64,000 bases of DNA from Elusimicrobiota bacterium (GCA_016207645.1 JACQPH010000045.1:6610-70609), one strand, 5' to 3'. Counted from the stretch's first letter, positions 1,477 to 25,281 are shown. The notes: generated from the sequence alone by a model not told the origin. A program made the numbers and translations.

Positions 1477-1548
1477 TGCCGCGGGCTGGGATCGAACCAG
1501 CGACACCTGGTTTTTCAGACCAGTGCTCTACCACTGAGCTACCGCGGC
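1477..1548 (-). tRNA. tRNA-Phe (anticodon GAA)
   Basis: The reverse complement folds as a cloverleaf: acceptor GCCGCGG/CCGCGGC, D arm GCTC-AGTGGTA-GAGC, anticodon arm CTGGT-CTGAAAA-ACCAG, variable GTGTC, T arm GCTGG-TTCGATC-CCAGC, discriminator A. CCA is not encoded. Confidence 0.9.
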
Positions 1549-4073: not shown

Positions 4074-4197
4074 AGGATCGCCTCCATAAAAAAACACCCC
4101 GTTCCGCGTTCGCAAGAACTGCCCGGAGCGGGGGTCTTGCAAGTAATTTTAACACAAAAAAGCTCGCCGTGTAAAATCCGCCCGGAGCCGAAAGTTT

Positions 4198-4206
4198 TGC
4201 TACAAT
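4198..4206 (+). promoter_or_regulatory. Extended -10 promoter (TGCTACAAT) 6 nt upstream of the kinase ATG (possible leaderless mRNA)
   Basis: TGC-TACAAT at 4198..4206, then ATCCCC, then ATG 4213. No Shine-Dalgarno can fit in 6 nt. Confidence 0.35.
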
Positions 4207-4212
4207 ATCCCC

Positions 4213-5307
<1,095 letters not shown>

Positions 5308-11135: not shown

Positions 11136-11876
11136 TTACCCGAGATAATCCACCGCGTTCCTGAAGAACTGGTAGCCGGCCGCGACGGCTTCCCTCGCTG
11201 CCGCTGGCCGGTCCGGATTCTGCCAGGCGAAGAAGTTGCGCTCCGGGTGGGGCATCAGGCCGAAGCAGGTTCCGGCCGCGTTCGTTATGCCGGCTATGTC
11301 CAGCATCGAGCCGTTCGGGTTGTCCGAATAGGTCATCGCGTGGAGCTCGCGCCCGACCAGGTCCGCCATTGTCTTTTTATCCTCCACTATGAATTTCCCC
11401 TCGCCGTGCGCGATCGGGAGCTCTATCGCTTCCGGCAGGCCTTTGGTGAACAGGCAGGGGCTTTTTTTATTTATCTTCAGCTTCACCCACTTGGCCAGGA
11501 AATGCCCGCAGTCATTGGTATAGAGCGTGGAAACCTGGGCGTTCCCTTTGTTCTCGGGCAGGAAGCCCGTTTTGACGAGTATCTGGAAACCGTTGCAGAT
11601 GCCTATCACCGGCCTTTTGCTCTTTATAAAAGCCTCGAAATCCGCAGAGAGGCGGCTCATCTTCACCGCGTAGATCTTGCCGGCCGAGATATCGTCGCCG
11701 TAAGAGAAGCCCCCGGGGAAAGCCATCAGGGAATAATCCAGCACCTTCTTTTCTCCTGACAGCAGTTGGTTGATATGCACCAGCTCCGGCTCGGCCCCGA
11801 CGTATTTAAAGGAATTGAACGTTTCGATATCGCAGTTGGTGGCGGTACCGCGCAGAATGATCGCTCTGGGCTTCAT
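11136..11876 (-). CDS. purQ: FGAM synthase glutaminase subunit
   Basis: Class I GATase: GICNGFQ catalytic Cys, MPHPER. 4-nt overlap with purL. Confidence 0.9.
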   Translation of the reverse strand: MKPRAIILRGTATNCDIETFNSFKYVGAEPELVHINQLLSGEKKVLDYSLMAFPGGFSYGDDISAGKIYAVKMSRLSADFEAFIKSKRPVIGICNGFQILVKTGFLPENKGNAQVSTLYTNDCGHFLAKWVKLKINKKSPCLFTKGLPEAIELPIAHGEGKFIVEDKKTMADLVGRELHAMTYSDNPNGSMLDIAGITNAAGTCFGLMPHPERNFFAWQNPDRPAAAREAVAAGYQFFRNAVDYLG

Positions 11877-14269
11877 ATGAGCTCCCGTTTCCAGCGGGCT
11901 TTCAGGCCGCCGATGTCTTCCTTAAAAAGCCGCTCCCCGCCGTCGGCCGCCTCAAGCACCGGTTCCTCGCTGACGAAGCCTATTTCGGGGACGGGCAGAC
12001 CTTCCACGAACTTCAGGAACTCCGCCTCCCTGTCCTTCACTACTTCGAGCACCAGGCGGGAAGGGCTTTCCCCGAACAGCAGTTCCAGCGCGGACAGGTC
12101 CTTCTCCTTCGCCGCTGAGGAAAGGTCTATTTCAGCCCCGAAGCCCCCGGAGAAAGCCATTTCGGAGAGGGTCACCGCCAGGCCGCCCTGCGACACGTCG
12201 TGAGCGGCGGCCACGCAACCGCTCTTGATGGCCTTCAGCAGCGCAGTGTACAGCCGCACCGCCGCCTTCATGTCCAGCGGGGCTATATAGTTATTGCCCG
12301 CCACCATCATGTCCGCGTAAACGGAGCCGCCCAGGCCGCGGCAGCTGGTCCCGGCCAGGTAAAGCGGGTTCCCGGCCTCCTTGAAATTCATCGTGATAGC
12401 CTTGCGGATATCCTCCACCGGGGCCGTGGCCGAGATCAGCAGGGACAGCGGTATCGGATATTCCTTCCCGTCGGCGTCCTTGGCCTGGTTGTAGAAGCTG
12501 TCCTTGCCCGAGATGAAAGGCGCGCCGTAAGCCATCGCCGCGTCGTGGCAGCCCTCGGCCGCCAGCACCAGGTCGCCCATCACTTCGGGGTCGCGCGGGC
12601 TGGCCGCGCAGAAATTGTCCAGGATGGCCGTGCGCGAGATCTCCGCGCCCACGCAGAGCAGATTCCTCACCGCCTCGTCCACCGCCTGCAGCGCCATCTG
12701 GTAAGGGTCTATTTTCCCGGCTGCGGGATTGAAGCCGTGCGTCACGGCGAAGCCGGAAAGATCGTGCAGGTCCAGCGTGGCGGCCTGCGGCCAAATGACA
12801 GTGGCGTCGCCGGGGCCGTCGCCGTATTTCCCCTGGAGCGGCTTTATCACCGTCCCGCCCTGCACCTCGTGGTCGTACTGGGTTATCACCGAATGCCTGG
12901 AGCAGACGTTAGGGTGGGCCAGCAGCTCTTTCAGGATCCCGCCGTAAGTTTTAGCCGGCCGGACCGGGGTCGCGCTGAAGATCCTCACTTTGCGGCGCGA
13001 GGCCGGCTTCTCGAAATTGGGCACGCCGCCGTGCAGGAAAGCCATGGGCAGGTCCGCCACCTTTTCCTCGCCGTGGGTGACCAGCAGCCTCCCGTTTCCG
13101 GGGAAGGCGCCCAGCACGCAGTATTCGCAGCTCTCCGCTTCAAGTATGGCCTCAAGCTTCTTCAGTTTAGCCTTCGGAACAGAAAGGATCATCCGCTCCT
13201 GCGATTCGGAAACCCAGATCTCCCACGGCTCGATGCGGGTATCCTTCAGCAGCGCGTCCTCGAGGCGCACCCGCGCGCCCGTTTCGGAACCGAGCTCTCC
13301 GATGGCGGAGGAGAAGCCGCCGGCCCCGCAGTCGGTGACGGCGTTATACAGGCCCAGGTCGCGGGCGCGCATCAGCACGTCGAGGGTCTTCTTCTCGTTC
13401 ACGGCATGCCCTATCTGCACGGCGGAGGCGGAAGTGTCCTCCTCGATATTGGCGGAAGAGAAAGTGGCGCCGTGGATGCCGTCCCGGCCGGTGCGCCCGC
13501 CGATGGAGACTATCAGGTCCCCGGGGACCACCTTTTTTTCTATCTTGTCCACGGGGATCAGGCCGGCGCAGCCGACATAGACCAGCGGATTGAGCAGATA
13601 GCCGTCGTCGAAATAGATGCCGCCGGAGGCGGTGGGGATGCCGATGCGGTTGCCGTAATCCCGCACCCCCTCCACCACGCCGCGCATGATGCGCTCGGGG
13701 GAATGGGAATTTCTGGGGAGCTTCTTTCTGGAGTCGAGGTAGCCGAAGCAGAAATTATCCGTGTTCAGTACCGGTTTCGCGCCCAGGCCCACGCCGAGGA
13801 TGTCCCGGATGACCCCGCCTACGCCGGTCTCCGCGCCGCCGTAGGGCTCCACCGCGCAGGGATGGTTGTGGGTCTCGGCCTTGAAGGCAAGGCCCCATTT
13901 CCCGCCCTTGCCGAACTCCACTATGCCGGCATTGTCGGTGAACACGGAAAGGCACCATTTCCTGTTCAGCGTCCTGGTAGCCTTGACTATGGTTTCCTTG
14001 AAAAGGTTCTTGTACTTTTTAACTTTGCCGCCGGACTTGAAGGCCACGGGACCGGAAAAGGTCTTATGCTTGCAGTGCTCGGACCAGGTCTGGGCTATGG
14101 TTTCCAGCTCGCCGCGCGAGGGCTGCCGGCCCATCTTTTTGAACTGGCGCCGCACTTCGGCGAGCTCCAGCGCGTTCAGCGACCAGCCGCAGGTCCTGTC
14201 CAGCTCCGCGAGCTGCCTGTCGCTCAAAGAGGTGAAGCCGGAAAGGGGGTCGGACATGGTTTTCAGCAT
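11873..14269 (-). CDS. purL: FGAM synthase II (large ATPase subunit)
   Basis: WSEHCKHKTF, KAETHNHPCAVEPYGGA, duplicated PurM-like domains, 798 aa. Confidence 0.92.
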   Translation of the reverse strand: MLKTMSDPLSGFTSLSDRQLAELDRTCGWSLNALELAEVRRQFKKMGRQPSRGELETIAQTWSEHCKHKTFSGPVAFKSGGKVKKYKNLFKETIVKATRTLNRKWCLSVFTDNAGIVEFGKGGKWGLAFKAETHNHPCAVEPYGGAETGVGGVIRDILGVGLGAKPVLNTDNFCFGYLDSRKKLPRNSHSPERIMRGVVEGVRDYGNRIGIPTASGGIYFDDGYLLNPLVYVGCAGLIPVDKIEKKVVPGDLIVSIGGRTGRDGIHGATFSSANIEEDTSASAVQIGHAVNEKKTLDVLMRARDLGLYNAVTDCGAGGFSSAIGELGSETGARVRLEDALLKDTRIEPWEIWVSESQERMILSVPKAKLKKLEAILEAESCEYCVLGAFPGNGRLLVTHGEEKVADLPMAFLHGGVPNFEKPASRRKVRIFSATPVRPAKTYGGILKELLAHPNVCSRHSVITQYDHEVQGGTVIKPLQGKYGDGPGDATVIWPQAATLDLHDLSGFAVTHGFNPAAGKIDPYQMALQAVDEAVRNLLCVGAEISRTAILDNFCAASPRDPEVMGDLVLAAEGCHDAAMAYGAPFISGKDSFYNQAKDADGKEYPIPLSLLISATAPVEDIRKAITMNFKEAGNPLYLAGTSCRGLGGSVYADMMVAGNNYIAPLDMKAAVRLYTALLKAIKSGCVAAAHDVSQGGLAVTLSEMAFSGGFGAEIDLSSAAKEKDLSALELLFGESPSRLVLEVVKDREAEFLKFVEGLPVPEIGFVSEEPVLEAADGGERLFKEDIGGLKARWKRELI

Positions 14270-14712
14270 TTTTCTATCCTGAATTTATTCACCACTTCGT
14301 TGACGAGGGTTTTGGAGACGGCCTGCCTGAGTTTCAGCTCCGAGGCGCACTGCACATAATAGGCGTGCCCGAACCTGACCGCCTCCGGAAGTTCGCCGGC
14401 CACGTCGGCGACGGCTTCCTTGACGCTTTCTCCCACCACGTCGGTCACGGAGTCTTTCAGCCAGACCTCCACCCGGTAGGCGTTCTTAAGGCCGGCCTTG
14501 CCGGGCTTCAGGGAACAATGCTCGGTGATATTGTCGGTCAGCAGTTCCGAGGCTATCCTGGAGAAGGTCTCTTCGCTGAAACCGGCGTCCACCCGGTAAA
14601 GGCGCGAGAGCCGGGCGGCCTTGACGTCCAGCCCGGCGTGGGCCAGCCTGCCGAGAAAAGCGGCCTCCTCGTTCTTCGCGTACTTCTCCTTGGTCCAGAT
14701 CTCTATTATCAT
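14263..14712 (-). CDS. purS: PurS-like protein with two tandem PurS-type halves (149 aa)
   Basis: The C-terminal half (YRVEVWLKDSVTDVVGESVKEAV..VNKFRIE) resembles ~80-aa PurS. The N-terminal half is a divergent repeat of similar length. It overlaps the purL start by 7 nt. Confidence 0.65.
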   Translation of the reverse strand: MIIEIWTKEKYAKNEEAAFLGRLAHAGLDVKAARLSRLYRVDAGFSEETFSRIASELLTDNITEHCSLKPGKAGLKNAYRVEVWLKDSVTDVVGESVKEAVADVAGELPEAVRFGHAYYVQCASELKLRQAVSKTLVNEVVNKFRIEKC

Positions 14713-14745
14713 TATGCGCCCGTAAAGAAGAAACCGGGTGATACT

Positions 14746-15621
14746 TCACCCGGCGGTTATTTTGTTAAGGGCTTCCTCGTACTTTTTGATGGTGCCCCGC
14801 ACCACCTCCGCGGGCAGCGCGGGCGGGGCGGAGTTCTTGTCCCAGCCGCTCCCCTCCAGCCAGTTGCGCACGTACTGTTTGTCGTAGCTCTCGGGGCTGG
14901 TCCCGACCCTGTACTGCGCCTTGTCCCAGAACCGGGAGGAGTCGGGCGTAAGCGCCTCGTCTATCAGCAGAAGCTCGCCGTCCAGCAGGCCGAACTCGAA
15001 CTTGGTGTCGGCCAGCAGGATGCCGCGCTTCTCCAAATGCCCGGCGGCGAATTCATACAGGGCCAGGCTCTTCTCTTTTATCTTCCCGGCCAGCTCCTCG
15101 CCGAGGACTTCGGCCATCTGTTCGAAGGTCACGTTCTCGTCGTGGCCCTGGTCGGCCTTGCTGGTGGGCGTGAACACCGGCTCCGGCAGCTTCTGCGCCT
15201 CTTCAAGGCCCGGCGGCAGCTTGATGCCGCAGACGCTGCCCTGTTTCCGGTATTCCTTCCAGCCCGAGCCGGTGATATACCCGCGCACTATGCATTCGAA
15301 ATCCACGCGCTTCGTCCGAAGCACCAGCACCGACCGGCCTTCCAGCCAGGCCCAGTCGAGCGCCGAAGTATCGTAGCCGGCGAGCCTGGCCCTGATCTCA
15401 CCGATATCGGAGGCTACCATATGGTTCTTTATGATGTGACCGGTCCGGTCGAACCAGAAGGAACTTATTTTATTAAGGATGGCGCCCTTGCCGGTGATCG
15501 GCGTAGGCAGTATGAAATCGAAAGCCGAGATTCTGTCGGAGGAAACAATCAGCAGGTACTTCTCGCCCGCCGCGTAAAGGTCGCGTACTTTTCCCTTATG
15601 TATCAGCTTCAGTTCAGCCAT
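14746..15621 (-). CDS. purC: SAICAR synthetase
   Basis: ORF 14746..15666 trimmed to MAELKLIHKGKVRDLY (AAGGAG 6 nt upstream of ATG 15621). SDRISAFD motif. Confidence 0.9.
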   Translation of the reverse strand: MAELKLIHKGKVRDLYAAGEKYLLIVSSDRISAFDFILPTPITGKGAILNKISSFWFDRTGHIIKNHMVASDIGEIRARLAGYDTSALDWAWLEGRSVLVLRTKRVDFECIVRGYITGSGWKEYRKQGSVCGIKLPPGLEEAQKLPEPVFTPTSKADQGHDENVTFEQMAEVLGEELAGKIKEKSLALYEFAAGHLEKRGILLADTKFEFGLLDGELLLIDEALTPDSSRFWDKAQYRVGTSPESYDKQYVRNWLEGSGWDKNSAPPALPAEVVRGTIKKYEEALNKITAG

Positions 15622-15665
15622 GCTCATCTCCTTGAAGGTAGACTGCCGGTCTTTACTGCGGATCA

Positions 15666-16178
15666 CTACATCTCCTGCAGGTACTTCTTGTAGCCTTTTT
15701 TCTCCAGCTTCGCCGTCTTGGCGAGGACTTCCTTCTTCATGGCGGCCCTGTAGGCCTTAAGCTTCGCCCGCAGCGAGGTTTCCTTCACGGCCAGGACCTG
15801 GACCGCCAGCAGGCCGGCGTTCTTCGCCGCGTTCACGCCTACGGTGGCCACCGGGATCCCTGCGGGCATCTGCACTATGGACAAAAGGGAATCGAGGCCG
15901 TTGAGCGAGGTGGCGTTCATCGGCACGCCTATCACGGGCAGCGTGGTGACGGCCGCGAGCACGCCCGGCAAATGGGCCGCCCCCCCGGCGCCGGCTATAA
16001 TGACCCCGAAACCGCGCTTTTCGGCGGCAGCCGAGTAAGCCAGGGCGGCCTCAGGGGTGCGGTGGGCGGAAAGGACCTTGATCTCGAAGGGGACGGAGAA
16101 ATGCTCCAGGACACCGGCGGCGGCGGACAGTACTCCCAGGTCCGAATCGCTTCCCATGACGATGGCTGCCTTAAGCAT
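15666..16178 (-). CDS. purE: N5-CAIR mutase / AIR carboxylase catalytic subunit (class I-like motifs)
   Basis: [23 protein letters not shown] 16178 is preferred over GTG 16184 (AGAGG 5 nt upstream). Confidence 0.9.
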
Positions 16179-16381
16179 GGTCACCTCTTTAAAGGAAAGA
16201 TTACCGCAGGGATATTCTATGATTTTCTAAAGACACGCACAAGCCAATGGATGTGCCGCTTCGGCACCCTCTTGTGCCGTATCAAGAGCTATGCTCCTCA
16301 GACGGCCAGATCGGGACGCTTATCTCCGTCGTAAAGGCTCAATACCGCGCAATGCTCCGGTTTTCCGCGGCCGGAGGGCCC

Positions 16382-16415
16382 TTGACATTTTCCGGTTATA
16401 CTGGTATAGTTATAC
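16382..16415 (+). promoter_or_regulatory. Sigma70-type promoter (TTGACA-17-TATAGT) overlapped by TATAC/GTATA half-site array (candidate Rrf2 operator)
   Basis: TTGACA 16382..16387, 17-nt spacer, TATAGT 16405..16410. TATAC-TG-GTATA-GT-TATAC spans 16397..16415, 27 nt upstream of the rrf2 ATG. Confidence 0.5.
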
Positions 16416-16441
16416 TAGATTACCACAAGGACCAAAGGCGC

Positions 16442-16861
16442 ATGCAAAGCATACTCAGGATCTCGGACGCGGCGGCCATAGCCATACACGCGGCCGACTA
16501 CCTGGCCGCGAAAAAGGACCCGCTCGTCCCGGCCATGGAGATAACCAGGGCGCTGGATATTTCCTACAACCACCTTTCCAAGGTGCTGCAGCAGCTCACC
16601 AGGGCGGGGCTGCTGACCGCCGCGCGCGGCCCTAAAGGCGGCTTCTCGCTTTCGCAGGCCGGCAAAAAAGCCAGGGTCCGCGATTTCATCGCCGCGATAG
16701 ACGGCCTTCCCCCCGCCGGGGACTGCCTGCTCAAGCACAAGGTCTGCCTGCACCGGAACTGCGTGCTGGGGAATTTCCTCAGCGAGACGAACGAGCGCTT
16801 TAAGGCGGTGCTGGACAGGAAGATCTCGGATTTCAGGGATTTACAGGGGCGGAGGCGGTGA
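16442..16861 (+). CDS. Rrf2-family transcriptional regulator (NsrR/IscR-like, three-Cys cluster motif)
   Basis: ORF 16247..16861 trimmed to MQSILRISDAAAIAIHAADYL. wHTH (ISYNHLSKVLQQLTRAGLL, RGPKGGF). Cys motif C-x6-C-x4-C (DCLLKHKVCLHRNC). Confidence 0.85.
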   Translation: MQSILRISDAAAIAIHAADYLAAKKDPLVPAMEITRALDISYNHLSKVLQQLTRAGLLTAARGPKGGFSLSQAGKKARVRDFIAAIDGLPPAGDCLLKHKVCLHRNCVLGNFLSETNERFKAVLDRKISDFRDLQGRRR

Positions 16862-16903
16862 AGCCTCTCCGTCCCGTTTTTTTGCGGAACAGGAGGAACT
16901 TAT

Positions 16904-17161
16904 ATGAACGACTCGACTGATCTTACCGGGAGAGGATTGAAGAAGAAGGTGGAGGACGCGCTGGCGCAGGTCAGGCCCTACCTCGAGGCGGACGGCGGCG
17001 GCGTGCAGCTCGTCGCCATAGACGAAACCTCGAAGACCGTGAAGGTGCGTCTGACCGGCGGCTGCGCCTGCTGCCCCTCGGCGGGTATCACGCTGAAGAA
17101 CGGCGTGGAAGCGGCGATCAGGAAGGCCGCTCCGGAGATAAAGAACGTCGAGGCGGTTTAA
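16904..17161 (+). CDS. NifU C-terminal-type (Nfu) Fe-S cluster carrier
   Basis: VRPYLEADGGGVQLV and GGCACCPS (CxxC). 85 aa. AGGAGG upstream. Confidence 0.85.
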   Translation: MNDSTDLTGRGLKKKVEDALAQVRPYLEADGGGVQLVAIDETSKTVKVRLTGGCACCPSAGITLKNGVEAAIRKAAPEIKNVEAV

Positions 17162-17176
17162 CCCAGGGGCGGCGTC

Positions 17177-17974
17177 ATGCACAAATACCTCGAACAGAAC
17201 ATCAAGGACATCATCGCCAGGTACCCCGGGGTGGGGAAGATCCTGAACGAATACAAGATAGGCTGCACCGCCTGCGCGGCGGGCACCTGCCGCCTGAAGG
17301 ATATCGTGGAGATCCATAACCTGCCCGGGCCCGAGGAGGAAAAGCTGATGGGGAGGATAGCCCTCGCCATTTCCCCCGACGGCGCCCTGATGGTCCCGAA
17401 AAGTCCGGGGAAAGCCGCTGCGCCGGCCGGCGGGTTAAAGTATTCCCCCCCGCTGAAAAGGCTGGTGGACGAGCATGTCCTGATAAAGCGGCTGCTGGCG
17501 CTGCTCCCGCGCTTCGTCGCCGGAACGGACCTGGGGTCCGAAGAGGGCGCCGGGCTGGCGCGCGGAGGGCTGAAGTTCATCCGCACTTACGCCGATAAGT
17601 ACCACCACGCGAAAGAGGAGGAGATCCTCTTCAAGTATTTCGACGGCGGCCTGGACGTTATCCAGGTCATGCTGCTGGACCATGTAACCGGGCGCGGCCA
17701 TGTAAAAGCCGCCGACGAGGCCTTGGCGGCTGGTGACGGGGCCGCGGCCGCGAAGCAGTTCCTGGCCTACCGCGAGCTGCTGGCCGAACATATCAAGAAG
17801 GAGGACGAGATCCTCTACCCGTGGATGGACAGGAACCTCACGATGAAACAGGTAGGCGAGCTGTCCGGCAGGTTCGACGAGGCGGATGAAAAATTCGCCC
17901 CGGAGCTTATCGCCGAATGCGAGGCGGTAGTGACCGGCCTGGAGAAACTGCTGGGCGCCGCGGAGTTAACCTGA
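17177..17974 (+). CDS. RIC/ScdA-like protein: DUF1858-type N-terminal domain fused to hemerythrin-like (HHE) domain
   Basis: N-terminus IKDIIARYPGVGKILNEYKIGCTACAAGTC. C-terminal part has His/Glu-rich helices (YHHAKEEEILFKYF, LLDHVTGRGH, LAEHIKKEDEILYPW). Confidence 0.7.
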   Translation: MHKYLEQNIKDIIARYPGVGKILNEYKIGCTACAAGTCRLKDIVEIHNLPGPEEEKLMGRIALAISPDGALMVPKSPGKAAAPAGGLKYSPPLKRLVDEHVLIKRLLALLPRFVAGTDLGSEEGAGLARGGLKFIRTYADKYHHAKEEEILFKYFDGGLDVIQVMLLDHVTGRGHVKAADEALAAGDGAAAAKQFLAYRELLAEHIKKEDEILYPWMDRNLTMKQVGELSGRFDEADEKFAPELIAECEAVVTGLEKLLGAAELT

Positions 17975-17976
17975 CC

Positions 17977-18636
17977 ATGGAGAACCGGGGAAAGCGCCAG
18001 CCGGACGTCTCCGGCTGCAATAAAAACGCGACCTGCCCGAATTCCCTGGGCCGCGCGGAGGGCCTGAGGCGGAGGATGGAAAGCCTGCTCGAAGAAGAAG
18101 GCCTGGCGGCATGGGTCGGCAGGATGCTCCCGGAGCCGGCTTTGGCGAGACACGCTTTCAGGGCCGCAACGGCGGAATGCCCCAACGCCTGTTCCCGGCC
18201 GCAGATAAAGGACTTCGGCGTCATACAGCGCAGCCTCCCCGGAAAAGGCGGGGGAGCCTGCGACAACTGCGGCCTATGCGTAAAAGCCTGCTGCGAATGC
18301 GGAATAACTCTCGATGCAAGAGGGCCCGCGGTAGATCTTGAGCTCTGCGTGCGCTGCGGGGCCTGCGCCAAAGTCTGTCCGACCGGGGCGCTGCGCGCGG
18401 AAAAGAAAGGTTTTTCGGTCTATATCGGCGGCAGGCTCGGCAGGCATCCCAGGCTGGGCGTGGAAGTGCTGGAACTGACGGACGAAGAGGGAGTACTGCT
18501 CGCGCTGAGAGCCGTGGTAAAGGGCTATATCAGGGAAGGCCGGCGCGGGGAGCGGTTCGGCGACCTGGCCGACAGGCTGGGCCTCGGGCGGCTGAAGGCT
18601 GAGATCGAAGCGGCCCTTTCCGGTCAGCCGGCGTGA
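17977..18636 (+). CDS. Truncated sulfite/nitrite-reductase-like Fe-S protein with inserted 2x[4Fe-4S] ferredoxin domain (219 aa)
   Basis: ORF 17917..18636 trimmed to MENRGK, 3 nt after the previous stop. Carries the siroheme-[4Fe-4S] Cys pattern C-x5-C (GCNKNATCPN) .. C-x3-C (ECPNACSRPQIKDFGVI) and the ferredoxin motifs CDNCGLCVKAC / CVRCGACAKVCP. Confidence 0.6.
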   Translation: MENRGKRQPDVSGCNKNATCPNSLGRAEGLRRRMESLLEEEGLAAWVGRMLPEPALARHAFRAATAECPNACSRPQIKDFGVIQRSLPGKGGGACDNCGLCVKACCECGITLDARGPAVDLELCVRCGACAKVCPTGALRAEKKGFSVYIGGRLGRHPRLGVEVLELTDEEGVLLALRAVVKGYIREGRRGERFGDLADRLGLGRLKAEIEAALSGQPA

Positions 18637-18668
18637 ATTTTCGGTCAAATATTCAGGAGGGAACTAAA

Positions 18669-19163
18669 ATGGAAAAGAAACACTCACATGGCGGACACGA
18701 AGCCGGCGGCTGCCCCGGGGCGAAGATGATGGACCTGCGCGAAGAAACGGCCGCCGCTGCCGCGCCGGCGGGGAAGGCCCCTTCGATGCTGCGGCAGTGG
18801 CCGGTGCAGCTGCACCTGATCTCGCCGATGGCGCCGTATTTCCAGAAGGCGGACCTGGTGGTCGCGGCCGACTGCACGGCTTTCGCCTACGGCAATTTCC
18901 ACGCGGAATACCTGAAAGGCAGGGCGGCCGTGATAGCCTGCCCCAAGCTGGACGACGGTCAGGAGGTCTACGTGGAGAAGATCCAGGCCCTGATAGAGGA
19001 CGCCAAGGTCAACACGCTCACCGTGCTGACGATGGAAGTGCCCTGCTGCGGCGGGCTGCTCGCCATGGTGCAGCAGGCCGCGCGCAACGCCAAGAGGAAA
19101 GTCCCGGTAAAGAGCATCGTAGTAGGCATAGGCGGGACGATCAAAAGCGAAGAGTGGGCATAA
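18669..19163 (+). CDS. Conserved Cys-rich redox protein of unknown function (LRQWPVQLHL..AADC..ACPKLDD..VPCCGG family), His-rich N-terminus
   Basis: AGGAGG 9 nt upstream of ATG 18669. I recall seeing this domain fused behind ferredoxin modules in other anaerobes; no characterised function is known to me. Confidence 0.6.
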   Translation: MEKKHSHGGHEAGGCPGAKMMDLREETAAAAAPAGKAPSMLRQWPVQLHLISPMAPYFQKADLVVAADCTAFAYGNFHAEYLKGRAAVIACPKLDDGQEVYVEKIQALIEDAKVNTLTVLTMEVPCCGGLLAMVQQAARNAKRKVPVKSIVVGIGGTIKSEEWA

Positions 19164-19185
19164 GAAGTTTCCGAAGCGAATACGC

Positions 19186-19222
19186 GCCGGCCTTGTCAGC
19201 GGACAGCGCTGACAAGGCCGGC
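19186..19222 (+). other. Perfect 15-16 bp GC-rich hairpin without U-tract between Fe-S genes and qNOR
   Basis: GCCGGCCTTGTCAGC(G) .. (C)GCTGACAAGGCCGGC with a 5-7 nt loop, followed by CTATAGCGG (no T run). Confidence 0.5.
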
Positions 19223-19256
19223 CTATAGCGGCATGTTAGCGGCCGGAGGACAAATA

Positions 19257-21521
19257 ATGGAAGGTCTCAAAAAAGCGGCGATAGCCAGCTTTGTTATCTC
19301 GATGCTCGTTCTGCTCGGCGGAGGGTGGCTGGCCAAAGACAGGGTCCCCCCCTACCCGCTGCAGATCTTCTCCGAAGGGACGGAACTTTCCGGGAAGGCG
19401 GAAATAATCAAGGGCCAGAACGCCTACCAGCGCTACGGCCTGATGGACCTGGGCAGCGTCTGGGGGCACGGGACCCTGCGCGGCCTGGATTTCTCGGCCA
19501 CCACGCTGAACCTGACGGGCCAGTACATGCGGCACTACTACGCCGGGAAGGCGGGCAAAAACTACGCCGCGCTCGACCCCGACGCCGCCGCCGCGATCGA
19601 CGCGAAAGTGATAAGGGAAATAAAGAAGAACAATTACGACCCCGTCACCGGCGTCCTCACTCTCACCCCTGCGCAGGCCTATGCCTTCCTGAAAGTCAGG
19701 GAGTACTGGCGCGAAGCTATGGTGAACGGGAACAACACCTACGGCCTGCAGGCCAAGGCGATGAAGGAGCTGAGCGAAACCGGGACGGTGGGCGACTTCT
19801 TCTTCTGGACCGCCTGGGCCGCCGGGGCCTTGAGGCCCGGCGAGAACTCCACCTACACCAATAACTGGCCGCCCGACGTCACCGTCGGCAACGCCATGAT
19901 GACCGACGCGCTCCTCTGGAGCGTGGCGGGCATCATAGCTTTCTTCATAGTCCTCGGGATAGTCACTTACGCCGTGCACCGCTACCGCATCCTTTACGGC
20001 GAGGAGAAAGCCGTGGAGACCGGCAGCCTGATGCTGAACCTGCCGCTCACCCTGAGCCAGGTCAGGGCGGCCAAGTTCTTCGTGGTAGTGACGGCCCTGT
20101 TCATCCTGCAGACCTGCATGGGCGGCATGCTGGCGCACTATACCGTCAGCCCCGGGACTTTCTTCCCGGACTTCCTGGCCGCGCTGGTCCCTTATACCTG
20201 GGCCAAAAGCTGGCATCTGCAGCTGGCCATTTTCTGGATAGCCACGACGTGGATAGGCGCTTCCATCTACCTGGCCCCCGTCATCAGCGGCAAAGAGCCG
20301 AAAGGGCAGGGCCTGCTCGTCAACATACTCTTCGGCGCGGTAGTGCTGGTGGCCGTGGGCAGCCTCGCGGGCACCGCGCTCGGCTCGAAGGGTTATTTCA
20401 CGGAGAACACCTGGTTCTGGTTCGGCCACCAGGGCTGGGAATTCCTCGAATCCGGCCGGTTCTGGCAATGGCTGCTCTTCGTGGGCCTCATCGCCTGGCT
20501 GGTCATAGTCTACCGCGGCATGAAGGACAAGCTCTTCGGGGCGGACAAGGACAACAGCGGCGTGGTCCTGTTCTACCTGGTGAGCGCCGTCATGGTGGTG
20601 GGCTTCTTCGGCTTCGGTTTCTTCTACGGCAAGGGCTCGCACCTTACCATCTCCGACTACTGGCGCTGGTTCGTGGTGCACCTGTGGGTGGAAGGCATCT
20701 TCGAGTTCTTCGGCGTGGCGATCATCTCCCTCTTCCTAGTGATGCTGGGGCTGGTCAAGAAGGAATCGGCGATGCGGGTGGCTTACTTCAGCGCCATCCT
20801 GGTGTTCGCCAGCGGCATCATCGGCACCGCGCACCATTACTTCTGGTACGGCGGGCCCTCCTACTGGCTGGCCCTGGGCGCGGTGTTCGCCTCGCTCGAA
20901 CCCATACCGATGATCCTGCTGGTCGTCCGGGCCTGGAAGGAATACGGGGCGATAGTGGACGCCGGCAAGGACTTCCCGTACCGCTGGCCGCTGTTCTTCC
21001 TGACGGCGTCGAGCTTCTGGAACTTCCTGGGCGCCGGGATGTTCGGCTTCTCCATCAACCTGCCGATCGTCAATTACTTCGAGCACGGGACGTACCTCAC
21101 GGCGAACCACGGCCATGCCGCCCTGTTCGGCGTCTACGGCATGCTGTCCATCTCGCTGCTGCTGTTCTCCTGGCGCTCGCTGGTCAAGGACGAGTACTGG
21201 AACAACGGCCTGCTGAAGGCTATCTTCTGGCTGCTGAACGGCGGCCTGTTCCTGATGGTGATGTCCGTGCTCCTGCCCGAAGGCCTGATCCAGACCTTCA
21301 TGGTCTACAAGCACGGGGTCTGGTTCGCCCGCAGCCCGGAGTTCTACAACCTGCCGGTCATCCTGCTGCTGAACAGGTTCAGGATCATACCCGACAGCAT
21401 CATCATAGCCGGCGCGGTGCTGCTCGGCTGGTTCCTGGTCTCCACTTACATCCGGATCAAACCGGTGAAGTGCGGCGAAGGGGAGGACATATATTACGGT
21501 AAAAGTTGTAAGATGTTGTAA
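19257..21521 (+). CDS. norZ: Quinol-dependent nitric oxide reductase (qNOR, single-subunit NorZ/NorB type)
   Basis: ~755 aa with an N-terminal periplasmic extension (GQNAYQRYGLMDLGSVWGHG) and 12+ TM helices. Heme-copper-oxidase motifs HLWVEGIFEFF and GTAHHYFWYG. GGAGGA 6 nt upstream of ATG 19257. Confidence 0.9.
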   Translation: MEGLKKAAIASFVISMLVLLGGGWLAKDRVPPYPLQIFSEGTELSGKAEIIKGQNAYQRYGLMDLGSVWGHGTLRGLDFSATTLNLTGQYMRHYYAGKAGKNYAALDPDAAAAIDAKVIREIKKNNYDPVTGVLTLTPAQAYAFLKVREYWREAMVNGNNTYGLQAKAMKELSETGTVGDFFFWTAWAAGALRPGENSTYTNNWPPDVTVGNAMMTDALLWSVAGIIAFFIVLGIVTYAVHRYRILYGEEKAVETGSLMLNLPLTLSQVRAAKFFVVVTALFILQTCMGGMLAHYTVSPGTFFPDFLAALVPYTWAKSWHLQLAIFWIATTWIGASIYLAPVISGKEPKGQGLLVNILFGAVVLVAVGSLAGTALGSKGYFTENTWFWFGHQGWEFLESGRFWQWLLFVGLIAWLVIVYRGMKDKLFGADKDNSGVVLFYLVSAVMVVGFFGFGFFYGKGSHLTISDYWRWFVVHLWVEGIFEFFGVAIISLFLVMLGLVKKESAMRVAYFSAILVFASGIIGTAHHYFWYGGPSYWLALGAVFASLEPIPMILLVVRAWKEYGAIVDAGKDFPYRWPLFFLTASSFWNFLGAGMFGFSINLPIVNYFEHGTYLTANHGHAALFGVYGMLSISLLLFSWRSLVKDEYWNNGLLKAIFWLLNGGLFLMVMSVLLPEGLIQTFMVYKHGVWFARSPEFYNLPVILLLNRFRIIPDSIIIAGAVLLGWFLVSTYIRIKPVKCGEGEDIYYGKSCKML

Positions 21522-21935
21522 ATGGGTACCATATTAAAGATATCGGAAGCGGCGGTGATAGCCGTGCACGCCGTCAACTTCCTCGCGAAAGCGGAAGGAA
21601 GCCCCAGTTCCACCAGGCTCATAGCTTCGGAGCTGGGGGTTTCCTACAATCACCTGACCAAGGTGCTGCAGCGTCTCACCCGGGCGGGCCTGCTGGTGCC
21701 CGGCCGCGGCCCGAAGGGAGGCTTCCTCCTTTCGAAAAAGGCCAGGGCCGGGAAACTGCGGGACGTTTTCGAGGCGATGGAAGGGAAGATGTCCCTTTCG
21801 AACTGCCTGATGAAGACCAAAGCCTGCGGCAGGCCAGGCTGCATCCTGGGGGACCTGATCCCCGAGACCAACCGGAAATTCCGCGAGGCGCTGGACAAGA
21901 AGATAAGCGAGCTGCCGGCGCGGAAGACCTGTTGA
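21522..21935 (+). CDS. Second Rrf2-family regulator (paralog of 16442..16861)
   Basis: ATG directly abuts the qNOR stop. VSYNHLTKVLQRLTRAGLL, RGPKGGF, and the same C-x6-C-x4-C motif (NCLMKTKACGRPGC). Confidence 0.85.
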   Translation: MGTILKISEAAVIAVHAVNFLAKAEGSPSSTRLIASELGVSYNHLTKVLQRLTRAGLLVPGRGPKGGFLLSKKARAGKLRDVFEAMEGKMSLSNCLMKTKACGRPGCILGDLIPETNRKFREALDKKISELPARKTC

Positions 21936-21938
21936 ACT

Positions 21939-22706
21939 ATGCCTCCTAAAAGAAGTTTCCTCGAGGAGACCTACCTGCTCTACAATAAGCCGGAATTCAT
22001 CCACCCCGACCCGCTGGAGTTCGTCTGGCGCTACAAGAGCGGCTCCGACAGGGAAATAGTCGGCCTGATAGCCGCCTGCCTGGCTTACGGCAACGTGACG
22101 CAGATCCTCAAGAGCGTGGAAAAAGTCCTTGGGCCGATGGGCGCCTCGCCGGCCGCCTGGCTTAAAGCCGCCCCCCCGGCCGTCGTTAAAAAGACCTTCG
22201 CCGCATTCAAGCACCGCTTCACTACCGGGGCCGAGCTGGCCGTCTTCCTGCTGAACATAAAGCTCGCCAGGCAAAAGCACGGCTCGCTCGAAAAGCTCTT
22301 CCTACAGGATTACGACAAGGACGAACCCACTGTAGAGCGCGCGATCTACAAATTCATCGACAAGTTCAACGCCGCCGGCTGCGCGCCTTCCCTGACGCCC
22401 TGCCCGGAGCATAAGAGCTCCTTCAAGCGGGTGAACCTGTACCTGCGCTGGATGGTCAGGAAGGACGCGGTGGACCCGGGCGTCTGGACCGGGGTATCCC
22501 CCGCCAAACTGCTGATCCCGCTGGACACCCATATGCGGCAGGTTTCGATGGGCATGGGCATAACCAGAAGGAAGGACACCTCGATGAAGACCGCCGCCGA
22601 GATCACGGCTTACTTCAGGACGGTGGAGCCCGGCGACCCGGTAAAATACGATTTCGCGCTTACCCGCGCCGGGATCAGGAGAAACAACGTAAAAACCCCG
22701 TTGTGA
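21939..22706 (+). CDS. TIGR02757/DUF2400-family uncharacterised protein
   Basis: N-terminal YNKPEFIHPDPLEFVWRY and LIAACLAYGNV recalled as typical of the family. Starts 3 nt after rrf2-2. Confidence 0.7.
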   Translation: MPPKRSFLEETYLLYNKPEFIHPDPLEFVWRYKSGSDREIVGLIAACLAYGNVTQILKSVEKVLGPMGASPAAWLKAAPPAVVKKTFAAFKHRFTTGAELAVFLLNIKLARQKHGSLEKLFLQDYDKDEPTVERAIYKFIDKFNAAGCAPSLTPCPEHKSSFKRVNLYLRWMVRKDAVDPGVWTGVSPAKLLIPLDTHMRQVSMGMGITRRKDTSMKTAAEITAYFRTVEPGDPVKYDFALTRAGIRRNNVKTPL

Positions 22707-22773
22707 TCTATTTTAGTAGAATACTTCGGCGGGGCACGCAGAAAGCCCCGGAGCTGTCGGCAGGAGGAAAGAA

Positions 22774-23346
22774 ATGAAGATCAAAGGTTCCAGGACCGAG
22801 AAGAACCTGCTCGCCGCTTTCGCCGGCGAGTCTCAGGCCCGCAACCGGTACACCTATTTCGCCGGCGCCGCGAAAAAAGAGGGCTATGTGCAGATCAGCC
22901 TGGCCTTCGAAGAGACCGCCTCGCAGGAGAAGGAGCACGCCAAACGCTTCTTCAAGTTCCTGGAAGGCGGCGATCTCAGTATCACGGCGACTTTTCCCGC
23001 CGGCAGGATCGCTGACACCAGGGCGAACCTGAAAGCTTCCGCCGACGGCGAGAAGCACGAATGGGGCACGCTCTACCCGGATTTCGCCAAGACGGCCCGG
23101 GAAGAAGGCTTCGAGCCGGTAGCCAAGGCCTTCGACGCCATCTCGGCGGCCGAGAAACAGCACGAGAAACGCTACCGGGGCTTCCTGAAGAATATCGAAG
23201 AAAGTTCCGTTTTCTGCAAGGCGAAAAAGACGGCCTGGCGCTGCCTTAACTGCGGCTACACTCACGAAGGGACCATTGCTCCGGAAAACTGCCCCGCCTG
23301 CGCCCATCCTAAAGCTTATTTCGAAATGCTTGCCGAGAACTGGTGA
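22774..23346 (+). CDS. rbr: Rubrerythrin
   Basis: N-terminal diiron four-helix domain (EKNLLAAFAGESQARNRY, EKEHAKRF) and C-terminal rubredoxin-like CLNCG..CPAC. Confidence 0.92.
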   Translation: MKIKGSRTEKNLLAAFAGESQARNRYTYFAGAAKKEGYVQISLAFEETASQEKEHAKRFFKFLEGGDLSITATFPAGRIADTRANLKASADGEKHEWGTLYPDFAKTAREEGFEPVAKAFDAISAAEKQHEKRYRGFLKNIEESSVFCKAKKTAWRCLNCGYTHEGTIAPENCPACAHPKAYFEMLAENW

Positions 23347-23396
23347 ATATGCTGAAATGCCGTTAGGCGGGCCCGGGGCTCCCAAAGGACACGATC

Positions 23397-23945
23397 ATGG
23401 ACGAAAACGTAAACGAAGAAGTAAAAAAAGAAGCTGTAAAGCGCACCGTGACCATTAAAGGCCGCCCGTTCACCCTTGTGGGCGACGAGATCAGGGTCGG
23501 CATGTCCGCCCCCGACTTCAAAGTGACGGACAACGACATGCTGCCAATGAAGTTCTCCCGCACCTACGGCGGCAAGGTGGCCGTCATCAGCGTAGTCCAC
23601 TCGCTGGACACTTCTATCTGCGACGTCGAGACCCGCCGCTTCAACAAGGAAGCCGAGGCGCTGGGCCCGGACGTGGGCGTGCTGACCATCAGCATGGACC
23701 TCCCCTTCGCCCAGAAGCGCTGGTGCGGGGCCGCCGGGATAAAAGCCGTGCGCACCTTCTCCGACTACCAGAAGGCCGATTTCGGCAAGTCCTGGGGCGT
23801 CCTGATCAAGGAACTGCGCCTGCTCGCGAGGGCCGTCTTCATCGTGGACAAGGACGGCATAGTGAAATACGCCCAGGTGGTCCCCGAAGTGGCCCAGGAG
23901 CCGGATTACGACGAAATCCTCACCGCCCTGCGGGCGCTGGTATAG
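23397..23945 (+). CDS. tpx: Thiol peroxidase (Tpx-type atypical 2-Cys peroxiredoxin)
   Basis: SAPDFKV, SLDTSICDVE (peroxidatic Cys), AQKRWCGA (resolving Cys). Confidence 0.9.
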   Translation: MDENVNEEVKKEAVKRTVTIKGRPFTLVGDEIRVGMSAPDFKVTDNDMLPMKFSRTYGGKVAVISVVHSLDTSICDVETRRFNKEAEALGPDVGVLTISMDLPFAQKRWCGAAGIKAVRTFSDYQKADFGKSWGVLIKELRLLARAVFIVDKDGIVKYAQVVPEVAQEPDYDEILTALRALV

Positions 23946-23972
23946 ACGAAACCGCTACAAGGAGAAAAACAA

Positions 23973-24353
23973 ATGCCTGAAAAAAGAGAAGTTTACAAAT
24001 GCGAGGTTTGCGGGAACATCGTGGAGGTCCTGCACGGCGGGAAAAGCCCGCTGGACTGCTGCGGCAAGGACATGAAGCCGATGAAAGAGAACACCGTGGA
24101 CGCTTCCAAGGAGAAGCACGTGCCGGTCATAGAGACGACCGACAAGGGGATCAAAGTAAAGATCGGCGCCGTGCCGCATCCGATGGAAGAGAAGCACTTC
24201 ATCGAATGGATCGAACTGGTGGCCGACGGCAAGGTTTTCCGGGAATATCTGAAGCCGGGCATGGCTCCCGAAGCCGTTTTCTGCGTCTGCTTCACCCCCA
24301 AGACTCTGGAGGCGCGGGAATATTGCAACCTGCACGGGTTATGGAAAGCCTGA
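23973..24353 (+). CDS. dfx: Desulfoferrodoxin (2Fe superoxide reductase)
   Basis: Centre I CEVCGN..CCG. Centre II His/Cys ligands ([22 protein letters not shown]). Confidence 0.92.
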
Positions 24354-24367
24354 ACTAAGGAGAAGAA

Positions 24368-24529
24368 ATGAAAAAATACGTCTGCAAGCTTTGCGGCTAC
24401 GTCTATGACCCCGCCGTAGGCGATCCCGACAACAACGTCCCCCCCGGCACGGCCTTCGAGAAGCTGCCCGAAACCTGGGTCTGCCCCGTCTGCGGCGCCG
24501 GCAAGGAAGAGTTCGAAATAGAAGCGTAG
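24368..24529 (+). CDS. Rubredoxin (53 aa; below ORF-track length cutoff)
   Basis: Hand translation: [53 protein letters not shown]. Two CxxCG knuckles. AAGGAG upstream. Confidence 0.92.
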
Positions 24530-24546
24530 TTCGGCTGAACGATAAT

Positions 24547-24575
24547 AAGGCCGGGAGCGATTCCGGCCTTTTTAT
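24547..24575 (+). terminator. Rho-independent terminator of the rbr-tpx-dfx-rubredoxin operon
   Basis: AAGGCCGG-loop-CCGGCCTT followed by TTTTATTTGTTTT. Confidence 0.75.
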
Positions 24576-24786
24576 TTGTTTTACTCATTAAATATGTATA
24601 GGAAGCAGAAGGACAATTAAATCATAGTCACTATAAGCGCGTTTATCGCCAGCTTACTTCGGATTTCCCCTCTTCCTTCCGCACGACTTTCTCAGAAATC
24701 TTACTATTCCCCGGCCCGGCTGGCGGCGGGTGCGGAAATAGTGAAGCTGGCGAACCGGACAAGAGCCTGTCGTGTCAAAAAAGTGA

Positions 24787-25281
24787 TCAAAGGGCGCGCC
24801 GCCAGGCTTTGAGTTTCTCGGGGTAGGGTTTGGAGGCGTGGGCGGGGCTGGTGGAGGGCAGGCGGCGGAACTCCAGGCCGGCGCGCGGGAGGGAAGGCAG
24901 GACGTATTTATTGAAGCATTCTTCGGCCTTCGAGCCGTTGAAGAGAACGCGCCTGATGCCGGGATGCCTGCGCAGGAAGGCCGACAGGTCATTTGGGACT
25001 ACGGAAGACTTTTCTATAGCCGAATCGAGGCTGCCGGGGCGGACGCAGGAGCCGAGGACGTCCCAGAGCGCTATCCCGTTCTTCTTCAGCAGCCGCAGGC
25101 GCGCGGCGTAGGGCAGGGCCGGGTCGAAGCCCAGGAGCTCGCCCAGCAGGCGCCGGAAGGCGTTGCGGGGATGCGCGTAGTATTGCCCGGCCGCCAGGGA
25201 GGCGCGCCCGGGCATGCTGCCGAGGATAAGAACCCTCGCGGCTGACTCCACCACGGGTTTAAAACCGCGGACTCTGCGCAT
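24787..25281 (-). CDS. Uracil-DNA-glycosylase superfamily protein, family 6-like (DNA-deoxyinosine/hypoxanthine glycosylase)
   Basis: ORF 24787..25503 trimmed to MRRVRGFKPV. ILGSMPGRASL and QYYAHPRNAF motifs. ~165 aa. Confidence 0.7.
   Translation of the reverse strand: MRRVRGFKPVVESAARVLILGSMPGRASLAAGQYYAHPRNAFRRLLGELLGFDPALPYAARLRLLKKNGIALWDVLGSCVRPGSLDSAIEKSSVVPNDLSAFLRRHPGIRRVLFNGSKAEECFNKYVLPSLPRAGLEFRRLPSTSPAHASKPYPEKLKAWRRAL

Follow-up and report, generated by a model that had tools for sequence, protein, structure and literature searches.

In a 64,000-nucleotide (nt) stretch of Elusimicrobiota bacterium DNA (GCA_016207645.1, JACQPH010000045.1:6610-70609; hereafter the window, meaning the whole stretch) we analyzed a plus-strand gene array that encodes a quinol-dependent nitric oxide (NO) reductase (qNOR) and two regulators of the Rrf2 superfamily, termed A (rrf2A) and B (rrf2B). 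The reading we favor, with somewhat better than even confidence, is that the array is a nitrosative-stress operon transcribed from one strong sigma-70 promoter, that an operator covering the -10 box of this promoter would be read by an uncharacterized iron-sulfur (Fe-S)-type Rrf2 subfamily, and that A and B are two historically co-occurring, largely redundant members of that subfamily.

A continuous stress-gene array with two Rrf2 genes

The array is continuous along the plus strand from 16.38 to 24.57 kb. Its features are listed below in window coordinates; loci compared with the window carry L numbers.

16442-16861, plus strand: rrf2A, A-type Rrf2 protein of 139 residues (PF02082, E 8.6e-22)
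16904-17161, plus strand: nfu, 85 residues, NifU-like C-terminal domain of the Fe-S cluster carrier type (PF01106, E 3.4e-24)
17177-17974, plus strand: hemerythrin-domain protein, 265 residues (PF01814, E 2.1e-16)
17977-18636, plus strand: NIR_SIR and Fer4 protein, 219 residues, with a NIR_SIR 4Fe-4S domain (PF01077, E 4.5e-17) and a ferredoxin domain (Fer4, E 4e-9)
18669-19163, plus strand: Cys-rich protein of the AF_0155 family, 164 residues, or 176 from an alternative GTG at 18633 (PF27217, a precomputed match for L012, in which the gene is identical)
19233-21521, plus strand: qNOR, 762 residues, possible start at 19257 (PF22085 and PF00115)
21522-21935, plus strand: rrf2B, B-type Rrf2 protein of 137 residues (PF02082, E 9.4e-23)
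21939-22706, plus strand: DUF2400/TIGR02757 protein (PF09674, E 4.7e-72)
22774-24529, plus strand: rbr-tpx-dfx-rd, same-strand genes after DUF2400
24547-24570, plus strand: terminator-like hairpin 3' of rd, the first one met along the array, with a 10-bp stem containing six GC pairs and then TTTATTTGTT

An earlier note on this DNA had described the interval from rrf2A to rrf2B as a single plus-strand array starting at 16382. The gene order is as proposed, with gaps of 42, 15, 2, 32, 69 and 0 nt, position 16382 is the start of a promoter -35 box, and the gene identities, including a genuine qNOR, are borne out by Pfam, NCBIfam and PDB matches. Likewise, the ATG of rrf2B (21522) directly abuts the TAA of qNOR (ending at 21521), as the note had stated; no obvious Shine-Dalgarno sequence precedes rrf2B, and the same TAA-ATG junction is present in L001 and L092. 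The further claim that the unit opens and closes with an Rrf2 gene holds in that both genes are there, but the array runs past rrf2B into DUF2400, which starts 3 nt after the end of rrf2B.

The qNOR protein matches the Geobacillus qNOR structure (PDB 3AYF) over residues 12-753 (E 3.9e-201) and combines an N-terminal cytochrome-c-like domain (PF22085, residues 47-214) with a NorB/COX1 core (PF00115, residues 280-690) in a single polypeptide. By these matches the gene encodes a genuine, full-length quinol-dependent NO reductase of the NorZ type.

The regulators belong to a large Rrf2 subfamily

The two regulators are paralogous, as the earlier note had it, sharing 47% identity over 131 residues in a gapless alignment (E 4e-44). 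Judged by their PF02082 scores (78.1 and 81.3 bits; cut-off 30) and TIGR00738 scores (78.7 and 76.4 bits; cut-off 73.3), both are members of the Rrf2 superfamily. An AlphaFold2 model of rrf2A (mean predicted local distance difference test score 86.5) has the Rrf2 fold, with an N-terminal winged helix-turn-helix followed by a long dimerization helix. All 35 PDB matches of the model with E <1e-3 are Rrf2 proteins (NsrR, RsrR, CymR, IscR and structural-genomics entries), the top structural matches being the ScNsrR-DNA complex (7B0C) and RsrR.

Both proteins contain a C-x6-C-x4-C motif (DCLLKHKVCLHRNC and NCLMKTKACGRPGC), correctly read in the earlier note, which set it against a C-x5-C-x5-C spacing for NsrR and IscR. 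The motif is found in 117 of 120 close homologs of rrf2A, and the exact spacing in 119 of 152 compared sequences (the two window proteins and the 150 best representatives, clustered at 50% identity). Spacing also differs among characterized Fe-S Rrf2 proteins: sequence comparison gives x4/x5 for Escherichia coli NsrR and x5/x5 for E. coli IscR, while the ScNsrR ligands C93/C99/C105 correspond to x5/x5 (PMC9338935) and C92/C102/C108 of RisR to x9/x5 (PMC9973013). Thus, x6/x4 is nothing special to this pair, and its distribution marks it as a signature of the subfamily rather than a peculiarity of the window proteins.

A search of 1.84 billion representative proteins with a profile of the clade retrieved 18,609 proteins at E ≤ 1e-3 and 2,532 representatives (50% identity) at E ≤ 1e-10; about 1,500 clusters (90% identity) matched one outgroup member at E ≤ 1e-20. 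The close homologs of both regulators all come from Elusimicrobiota metagenome-assembled genomes (MAGs) or metagenomes. A Desulfovibrio-like origin, which the rbr/dfx/rd genes and the GC content could have indicated, was rejected on this ground. For the wider subfamily, cluster records yielded almost no taxon names, 'Deltaproteobacteria bacterium' being the one label encountered. An alignment of 83 sequences, drawn from the Elusimicrobiota clade and one outgroup clade, shows no variation at S8, H16, S41, K47, Q50, R62-G63-P64, G66-G67-F68, C95, C102 and C107; rrf2A has C95, C102, C107 and H16, and also D9. The earlier note had allowed for membership in ordinary NsrR or IscR clades; checked by family scores, the regulators instead form a subfamily of their own. 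The RirA and CymR equivalog cut-offs are also missed by a wide margin by both proteins, and the best sub-threshold NCBIfam match is a SUF regulator. By these comparisons the subfamily is a large, uncharacterized Fe-S-type Rrf2 group with its own operator and candidate ligand pattern. Full-text searches, with subscription journals and RegPrecise outside their coverage, returned no account of the subfamily or of the Cys spacing and operator that go with it.

The outer two Cys of the triad, C95 and C107, match C93 and C105 of ScNsrR in the alignment; the middle Cys alone is displaced, by one residue. H16 aligns with RsrR His12 and C95 with RsrR C90, in an alignment that ends before C102 and C107. 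In NsrR and RsrR, helix 1 supplies a cluster ligand from the partner subunit. The invariant His16 is located on helix 1, one helical turn beyond Ala12, and neither regulator has a His three residues after the third Cys, where the IscR ligand set C-x5-C-x5-C-x2-H would place it. These positions suggest that an Fe-S cluster would be held by (Cys)3 together with His16 in trans.

One promoter and one predicted operator

Two overlapping elements precede rrf2A:

16382-16410, plus strand: sigma-70-type promoter, TTGACA (16382-16387), a 17-nt spacer and a TG-extended TATAGT (16405-16410)
16397-16417, no strand assigned: operator candidate, interlocking palindromes TATAC-TG-GTATA-GT-TATAC, TATACTGGTATAGTTATACTA

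The promoter matches at 11 of 12 positions and is the sole strong promoter-like site within 15500-25000. Its -10 box is covered by the 16-bp operator core TGGTATAGTTATACTA (16402-16417), which is of the GGTA-N6-TACC type. The TATAC/GTATA operator candidate of the earlier note is real; it lies over the -10 box and is conserved in related loci. The note had suggested looking for further copies in the window and genome; the 64-kb window holds one good copy: when searched with TATACNNGTATA, GTATANNTATAC and TGGTATANNTATACCA (up to three mismatches) and with GGTA-N6-TACC (up to one mismatch), the promoter site alone stands out.

Nearly all related Elusimicrobiota loci recovered have the -35/-10 layout and the 16-mer (0-2 mismatches) ahead of their first gene. 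That first gene varies, being rrf2, hcp, nfu, the hemerythrin gene or, behind a more degenerate operator, qNOR. The operator consensus TGGTATAGTTATACCA, whose conserved form is TGGTATA-N2-TATACCA, that is GGTA-N6-TACC, does not differ between loci with A alone (L017, L018) and loci with B alone (L002, L005, L089). A and B are also almost the same in their recognition helix (SYNHL(S/T)KVLQ(Q/R)LTRAGLL) and wing (RGPKGGF). The identity of the operator in A-only and B-only loci argues that A and B probably have the same DNA specificity, and both would probably repress this one promoter. Of 22 distant subfamily loci, 18 have a GGTA-N6-TACC sequence (at most one mismatch) in the 200 nt that precede rrf2, compared with 0.07 per 200 nt as background; its usual distance from the start codon of rrf2 is 25-45 nt, and a TATAAT-like box lies inside it. 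As part of the overall model, and on balance probably, the palindrome is the predicted operator of the subfamily.

A weak operator-like sequence, TGTAAATGGGTACC (21517-21530), overlaps the start codon of rrf2B and is one mismatch from GGTA-N6-TACC. In L002, L004 and L005, a 100-nt spacer before rrf2B holds TACAAT and then, at the place corresponding to the window site (~9995-10010), the operator-like TAGTATATGAGTACCA over the rrf2B start codon; in L002 this is again one mismatch from GGTA-N6-TACC. Such a site could be a weak internal autoregulatory element or a coding coincidence (codons Gly/Ser-Thr-Ile). Alternatively, rrf2B might stand outside the NO unit, as the first gene and dedicated regulator of a separate DUF2400 unit, perhaps including rbr-tpx-dfx-rd, and the island would consist of two neighboring regulons. 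These operator-like sequences would fit such a reading, as would the constant position of the B-type gene: DUF2400 is always the next gene, in most loci 3-25 nt away, and this holds also after loss of qNOR (L003, L089, L096). However, the A-only loci L018, L025, L031 and L035 keep the DUF2400-rbr cluster without B, the window rrf2B is preceded by no spacer, promoter or Shine-Dalgarno sequence, its operator-like sequence falls within codons 1-3, where it may be coincidental, and there is no operator before rbr. We regard two separate regulons as highly improbable.

The regulator pair and the deletion of hcp

Across related genomes the region between a divergent pur operon and DUF2400-rbr-tpx-dfx-rd is highly plastic in gene content. 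The gene orders behind the promoter/operator are as follows:

L018, L025, L031, L035: rrf2A-hcp-DUF2400...
L089, L091: hcp-rrf2B-DUF2400...
L002, L004, L005: hcp-nfu-hemerythrin-SiR-AF_0155-qNOR-rrf2B-DUF2400... (no A)
L092: nfu-hemerythrin-AF_0155-qNOR-rrf2B-...
L003: hemerythrin-AF_0155-rrf2B-...
L009: qNOR-rrf2-DUF2400...
L023: rrf2A-hcp-nfu-...-qNOR (contig ends inside qNOR)
L030: rrf2A-(hcp pseudogene)-nfu-...-qNOR, then deletion of rrf2B and the 5' end of DUF2400

Where related Elusimicrobiota loci can be read through the two regulator positions, A and B are present together solely in the window and in L012, which is from the same strain. Single-regulator loci have either an A-type gene before hcp or a B-type gene after qNOR. 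Thus, the bracketing of the unit by two Rrf2 genes, which the earlier note had presented as unusual, is not a conserved design; the window bears the scar of an hcp deletion:

16842-16846, no strand assigned: deletion scar, 1,772 bp lost, comprising the stop codon of rrf2A, the spacer, all of hcp and part of the hcp-nfu spacer

Window positions 16361-16842 (promoter and rrf2A) align to L023 2918-3399, while 16846-17200 (the hcp-nfu spacer hairpin and nfu) align to L023 5172-5521; from these breakpoints, 1,772 bp including hcp are missing from the window. The hairpin of the hcp-nfu spacer, GGGGCGGAGG...CCTC, now stands 3' of the rrf2A coding sequence, and because the rrf2A frame runs into this old spacer the protein ends in a non-native C-terminal tail, DLQGRRR. 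No hcp gene was found within the 64-kb window.

We considered whether the rrf2A-nfu junction could be an assembly chimera. The junction of the upstream purE gene, rrf2A and nfu is identical in two separate Logan assemblies (runs SRR12113385 and SRR12113419), which makes a chimera unlikely, and this explanation was rejected.

Losses of this kind are not confined to the window. Remnants of the qNOR 3' end (its last ~8-10 codons) precede rrf2B in L003 (~3560-3600), L089 (~9980-10000) and L096 (~3420-3445), and L029 and L030 retain hcp as a pseudogene with an internal deletion, L030 having also lost rrf2B and the 5' end of DUF2400 (L029/L030 positions 4271-4500 and 9170-9340). Judged by these comparisons, the locus has undergone recurrent independent deletions, with hcp, qNOR and the SiR-like gene each lost independently.

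In a neighbor-joining tree, a simple distance tree without support values, the window rrf2B groups with the regulators immediately upstream of DUF2400 in L001-L005, where the preceding gene is mostly qNOR, and the window rrf2A groups with regulators that precede hcp. A and B thereby fall into two sister clades. The doubling is best read as a relic of an rrf2A-hcp unit fused with an nfu...qNOR-rrf2B module, from which sister lineages then dropped A or B. The present lineage would, rather more probably than otherwise, have kept both regulators and lost hcp by the 1.77-kb deletion. The existence of sister lineages with A or B alone suggests that either regulator suffices. Most simply, the two-regulator state is a rare, lineage-specific product of module fusion and deletion that would matter little in itself.

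The ratio of nonsynonymous to synonymous substitution rates (dN/dS) is 0.18-0.21 for rrf2A against its orthologs and 0.15-0.21 for rrf2B, the same as in ortholog-ortholog controls. Both copies are under purifying selection. We also considered rrf2A as a decaying remnant left by the deletion and rejected this, as its invariant residues are intact and its dN/dS values equal those of the controls.

Proposed circuit and its signal

In the circuit that we propose, a cluster-loaded (holo) dimer would sit on the -10 box and block transcription. NO damage or nitrosylation of the cluster would release the dimer, and release would switch on nfu, the hemerythrin protein, the NIR_SIR/ferredoxin protein, the AF_0155 protein, qNOR, both regulators and probably DUF2400. 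For the two regulators, this would constitute negative autoregulation. A and B would most likely act at the same operator and be largely redundant.

We infer NO as the signal from gene content, that is from qNOR in the operon, hcp in the sister loci, where it occupies the same operon slot, and NO-related genes near distant members. The most constant neighbors of the subfamily are hcp and AF_0155/ferredoxin genes, and qNOR also recurs; distant members adjoin hcp, YgbA_NO, flavodiiron protein, cupin and Fer4+AF_0155 genes, with the YgbA_NO or flavodiiron adjacency seen for single distant members. The gene content of the window operon and its relatives matches that of NsrR and HcpR regulons (PMC1274295).

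Several observations weigh against this model or parts of it. Both proteins score far below the equivalog cut-offs of NsrR (NF008240; 44.0 and 42.2 versus 182 bits) and IscR (TIGR02010/NF008110; 40.7 and 40.2 versus 207.55 bits), and both have Ala12 at the position of ScNsrR Asp8 and RsrR Glu8. The operator is unlike the NsrR consensus gATGyAT-N5-ATrCATc (PMC1274295). A redox, O2 or Fe-S-status signal would also be in keeping with nfu and with the oxidative-stress genes next to the operon. Purifying selection is equally strong on the two retained copies, which argues against simple redundancy, and the cluster loop differs by clade, reading CL(L)K-H-KVC-x-H-R-x-C, with two His, in A and CLMK-T-K-x-C-G-K/R-x-G-C in B. 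As to the history of the locus, the distance tree has no support values, and no contig with a full rrf2A-hcp-...-qNOR-rrf2B operon was found, L023 breaking inside qNOR. The NsrR-type role proposed in the earlier note stands in part: it is plausible from the NsrR/HcpR-like gene content, but the proteins are not of the NsrR family.

Two of these points, the equal selection on two intact copies and the cluster loop, in which B has neither of the His residues of A, would fit a circuit in which each regulator has a task of its own. Here, the pair would be a two-sensor device on one operator, either as heterodimers with unlike cluster sites or as homodimers with different NO/O2 thresholds or signals, and control would be graded or respond to two signals (NO versus O2/redox); A and B would also be the first members of a widespread new Fe-S Rrf2 class with (Cys)3 plus trans-His16 ligation. 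The clade-specific loop residues could tune sensitivity. In Rrf2 dimers a non-Cys ligand comes from the partner subunit, as does ScNsrR Asp8 (PMC5411485), and thus an A-B heterodimer would mix cluster sites. There is precedent in HcpR1 and HcpR2 of Desulfovibrio desulfuricans, paralogous NO-related regulators with divided roles (PMC5701242). Moreover, rrf2B abuts the qNOR stop codon without its own Shine-Dalgarno sequence, so that its expression level would be unlike that of A; a promoter-proximal A and a distal, translationally coupled B present in different amounts could shape the kinetics of induction and shut-off. Against such a device, every other locus readable across both positions has one regulator of either type with the same operator, the deletion scar of the window looks recent, and A/B differences in the DNA-reading and dimerization helices are few and conservative. 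We consider division of labor between the two regulators unlikely, and the dual-signal device with its new ligand class equally doubtful.

The second challenge concerns the signal. In place of NO, the regulators could respond to Fe-S status, redox or O2 and reactive oxygen species, like IscR, RisR and RsrR, with qNOR and hcp being merely two targets. Besides nfu within the operon, the DUF2400-rbr-tpx-dfx-rd genes always come next on the same strand, and in L099, a Deltaproteobacteria-labelled MAG, a subfamily regulator lies amid dfx, ferritin, rubrerythrin and flavodiiron protein genes. The regulators themselves have the redox sensor RsrR as best PDB sequence match, with His16 aligned to its His12, and a SUF regulator as best sub-threshold family match. 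However, the neighboring hcp, AF_0155/ferredoxin, qNOR and YgbA_NO genes belong to the classic repertoire of NO/nitrite stress (PMC1274295), rbr lacks an operator but has a conserved -10-like element to itself, and no isc or suf biosynthesis genes are adjacent. A signal other than NO is, in our assessment, rather improbable, and NO sensing is retained as the preferred reading.

Comparison with characterized regulators

One of the closest known counterparts is NsrR, the NO-sensing [4Fe-4S] Rrf2 repressor of Streptomyces coelicolor, E. coli and Bacillus subtilis. The window proteins share its winged-helix fold, as reflected in the 7B0C match, and have three Cys in the same loop after the wing. 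NsrR represses from a palindromic operator overlapping the promoter, which is the role proposed here, and its regulon includes genes of the norB, hcp, ytfE/dnrN and hmp kinds (PMC1274295), a likeness that here lies in gene position alone. By contrast, identity to NsrR is merely ~25-27%, the window regulators have four extra N-terminal residues, the NsrR ligand Asp8 (PMC5411485) is replaced by Ala while an invariant His16 is present instead, and the operator is GGTA-N6-TACC.

RsrR, the redox-sensing [2Fe-2S] regulator of Streptomyces venezuelae, matches the window proteins with E 6e-10 to 1e-9. Volbeda et al. are said to have assigned, in 2019, its ligands to Glu8 and His12 of one subunit and two Cys of the other. 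The Glu8 position is Ala in the window regulators, and the gene context also differs.

The Fe-S-status regulators IscR and RisR have three Cys, and IscR also has a His ligand, which makes (Cys)3His ligation plausible here. However, the IscR His (H107) lies after the third Cys, whereas the invariant His of the window regulators is on helix 1. The Fe-S carrier gene nfu in the window operon is a further likeness, and the absence of isc or suf genes nearby a difference. HcpR, a CRP/FNR-family protein, has the same ecological role and targets, namely hcp with a ferredoxin-like partner and hemerythrin-like genes in strict anaerobes (PMC1274295), but it belongs to an unrelated protein family, recognizes TGTGA-N6-TCACA or TTGAC-N4-GTCAA and is mostly predicted to be an activator rather than a repressor. 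Judged by sequence, the window system is functionally NsrR/HcpR-like and, by membership, outside NsrR, IscR, RsrR and RirA.

Other genes of the array and window

All related loci that extend this far have DUF2400 behind the regulator/hcp/qNOR block, and in L099 a DUF2400/TIGR02757 gene (4001-4834) is just upstream of the subfamily rrf2. In the window, the regulated unit probably ends with this gene, which looks like a conserved part of the stress locus with no function assigned. Beyond it lies a further promoter element:

22714-22723, plus strand: -10-like element TAGTAGAATA (TAGAAT), upstream of rbr

With small variations, the element TAGTAGAAT(A/G)T is present upstream of rbr in all 12 loci compared (the window, L002, L004, L005, L006, L009, L018, L025, L031, L035, L089 and L092), often with a GC-rich hairpin after it. 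No GGTA-N6-TACC site precedes rbr in the window, and a separate promoter that does not depend on the Rrf2 operator probably serves rbr-tpx-dfx-rd.

Among the remaining operon genes, nfu is conserved in L002, L004, L005, L023, L030 and L092. The hemerythrin-domain protein has a Cys-containing, DUF1858-like N-terminus (E 0.009), scoring 19 bits against TIGR03980 ('hybrid cluster protein-associated redox disulfide domain'; cut-off 45). It is below the RIC equivalog cut-off (TIGR03652; 17.5 versus 204.7 bits) and matches YtfE 7BHC with E 0.046. By these scores it is RIC-like in architecture, yet no RIC/YtfE ortholog. The NIR_SIR protein aligns solely with the C-terminal half of AsrC-type sulfite reductase; its gene call agrees with L012, and the gene is absent in L001/L092 and L003. 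The AF_0155-type protein had no match in our local Pfam and NCBIfam copies, and no PDB relative was found. In other lineages a gene of this family recurs directly downstream of the subfamily rrf2 and upstream of hcp (L038-L040, L046, L048, L050, L052, L054, L055, L070, L099, L101), and in L099 and L101 the protein is fused to Fer4 domains. A ferredoxin of the FrdX type has been described as partner of Hcp (PMC1274295), and the AF_0155 protein may represent its C-terminal module.

Upstream of the array, and divergent from it, is a purL-purS-purC-purE operon (11873-16184, minus strand), an adjacency kept in many related loci. In L096, a second, unrelated Rrf2 gene (1739-2143) has C-x6-C-x5-C spacing and its own upstream palindrome, ATGATACTGATATAGTATCAT; it lies 1.3 kb upstream of the B-type rrf2, with divergently oriented xdhC-like genes between. 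Elsewhere in the window there is a single tRNA gene (1477-1548, minus strand) and a gene at 33365-34705 (minus strand) for a 446-residue protein with an N-terminal signal-like sequence and, by eye, apparent HEAT-type repeats. GC content is 0.49-0.50 over 33-35 kb and ~0.62 elsewhere in the window, and this low-GC segment with its 446-residue protein may have been acquired horizontally.

Implications

The related loci constitute a natural experiment, with A only, B only or both in sister genomes, that shows which parts are dispensable. A subfamily with its own conserved operator is, in our view, more interesting and useful than the doubling of the regulator. If true, the GGTA-N6-TACC Rrf2 class would be a third type of hcp/NO-reductase regulator in strict anaerobes, beside NsrR and HcpR, and would offer a new ligand arrangement for Fe-S sensor chemistry. 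If its members sense NO, the subfamily would supply the missing regulator of nitrosative-stress genes in Elusimicrobiota and in further anaerobes with neither NsrR nor HcpR.

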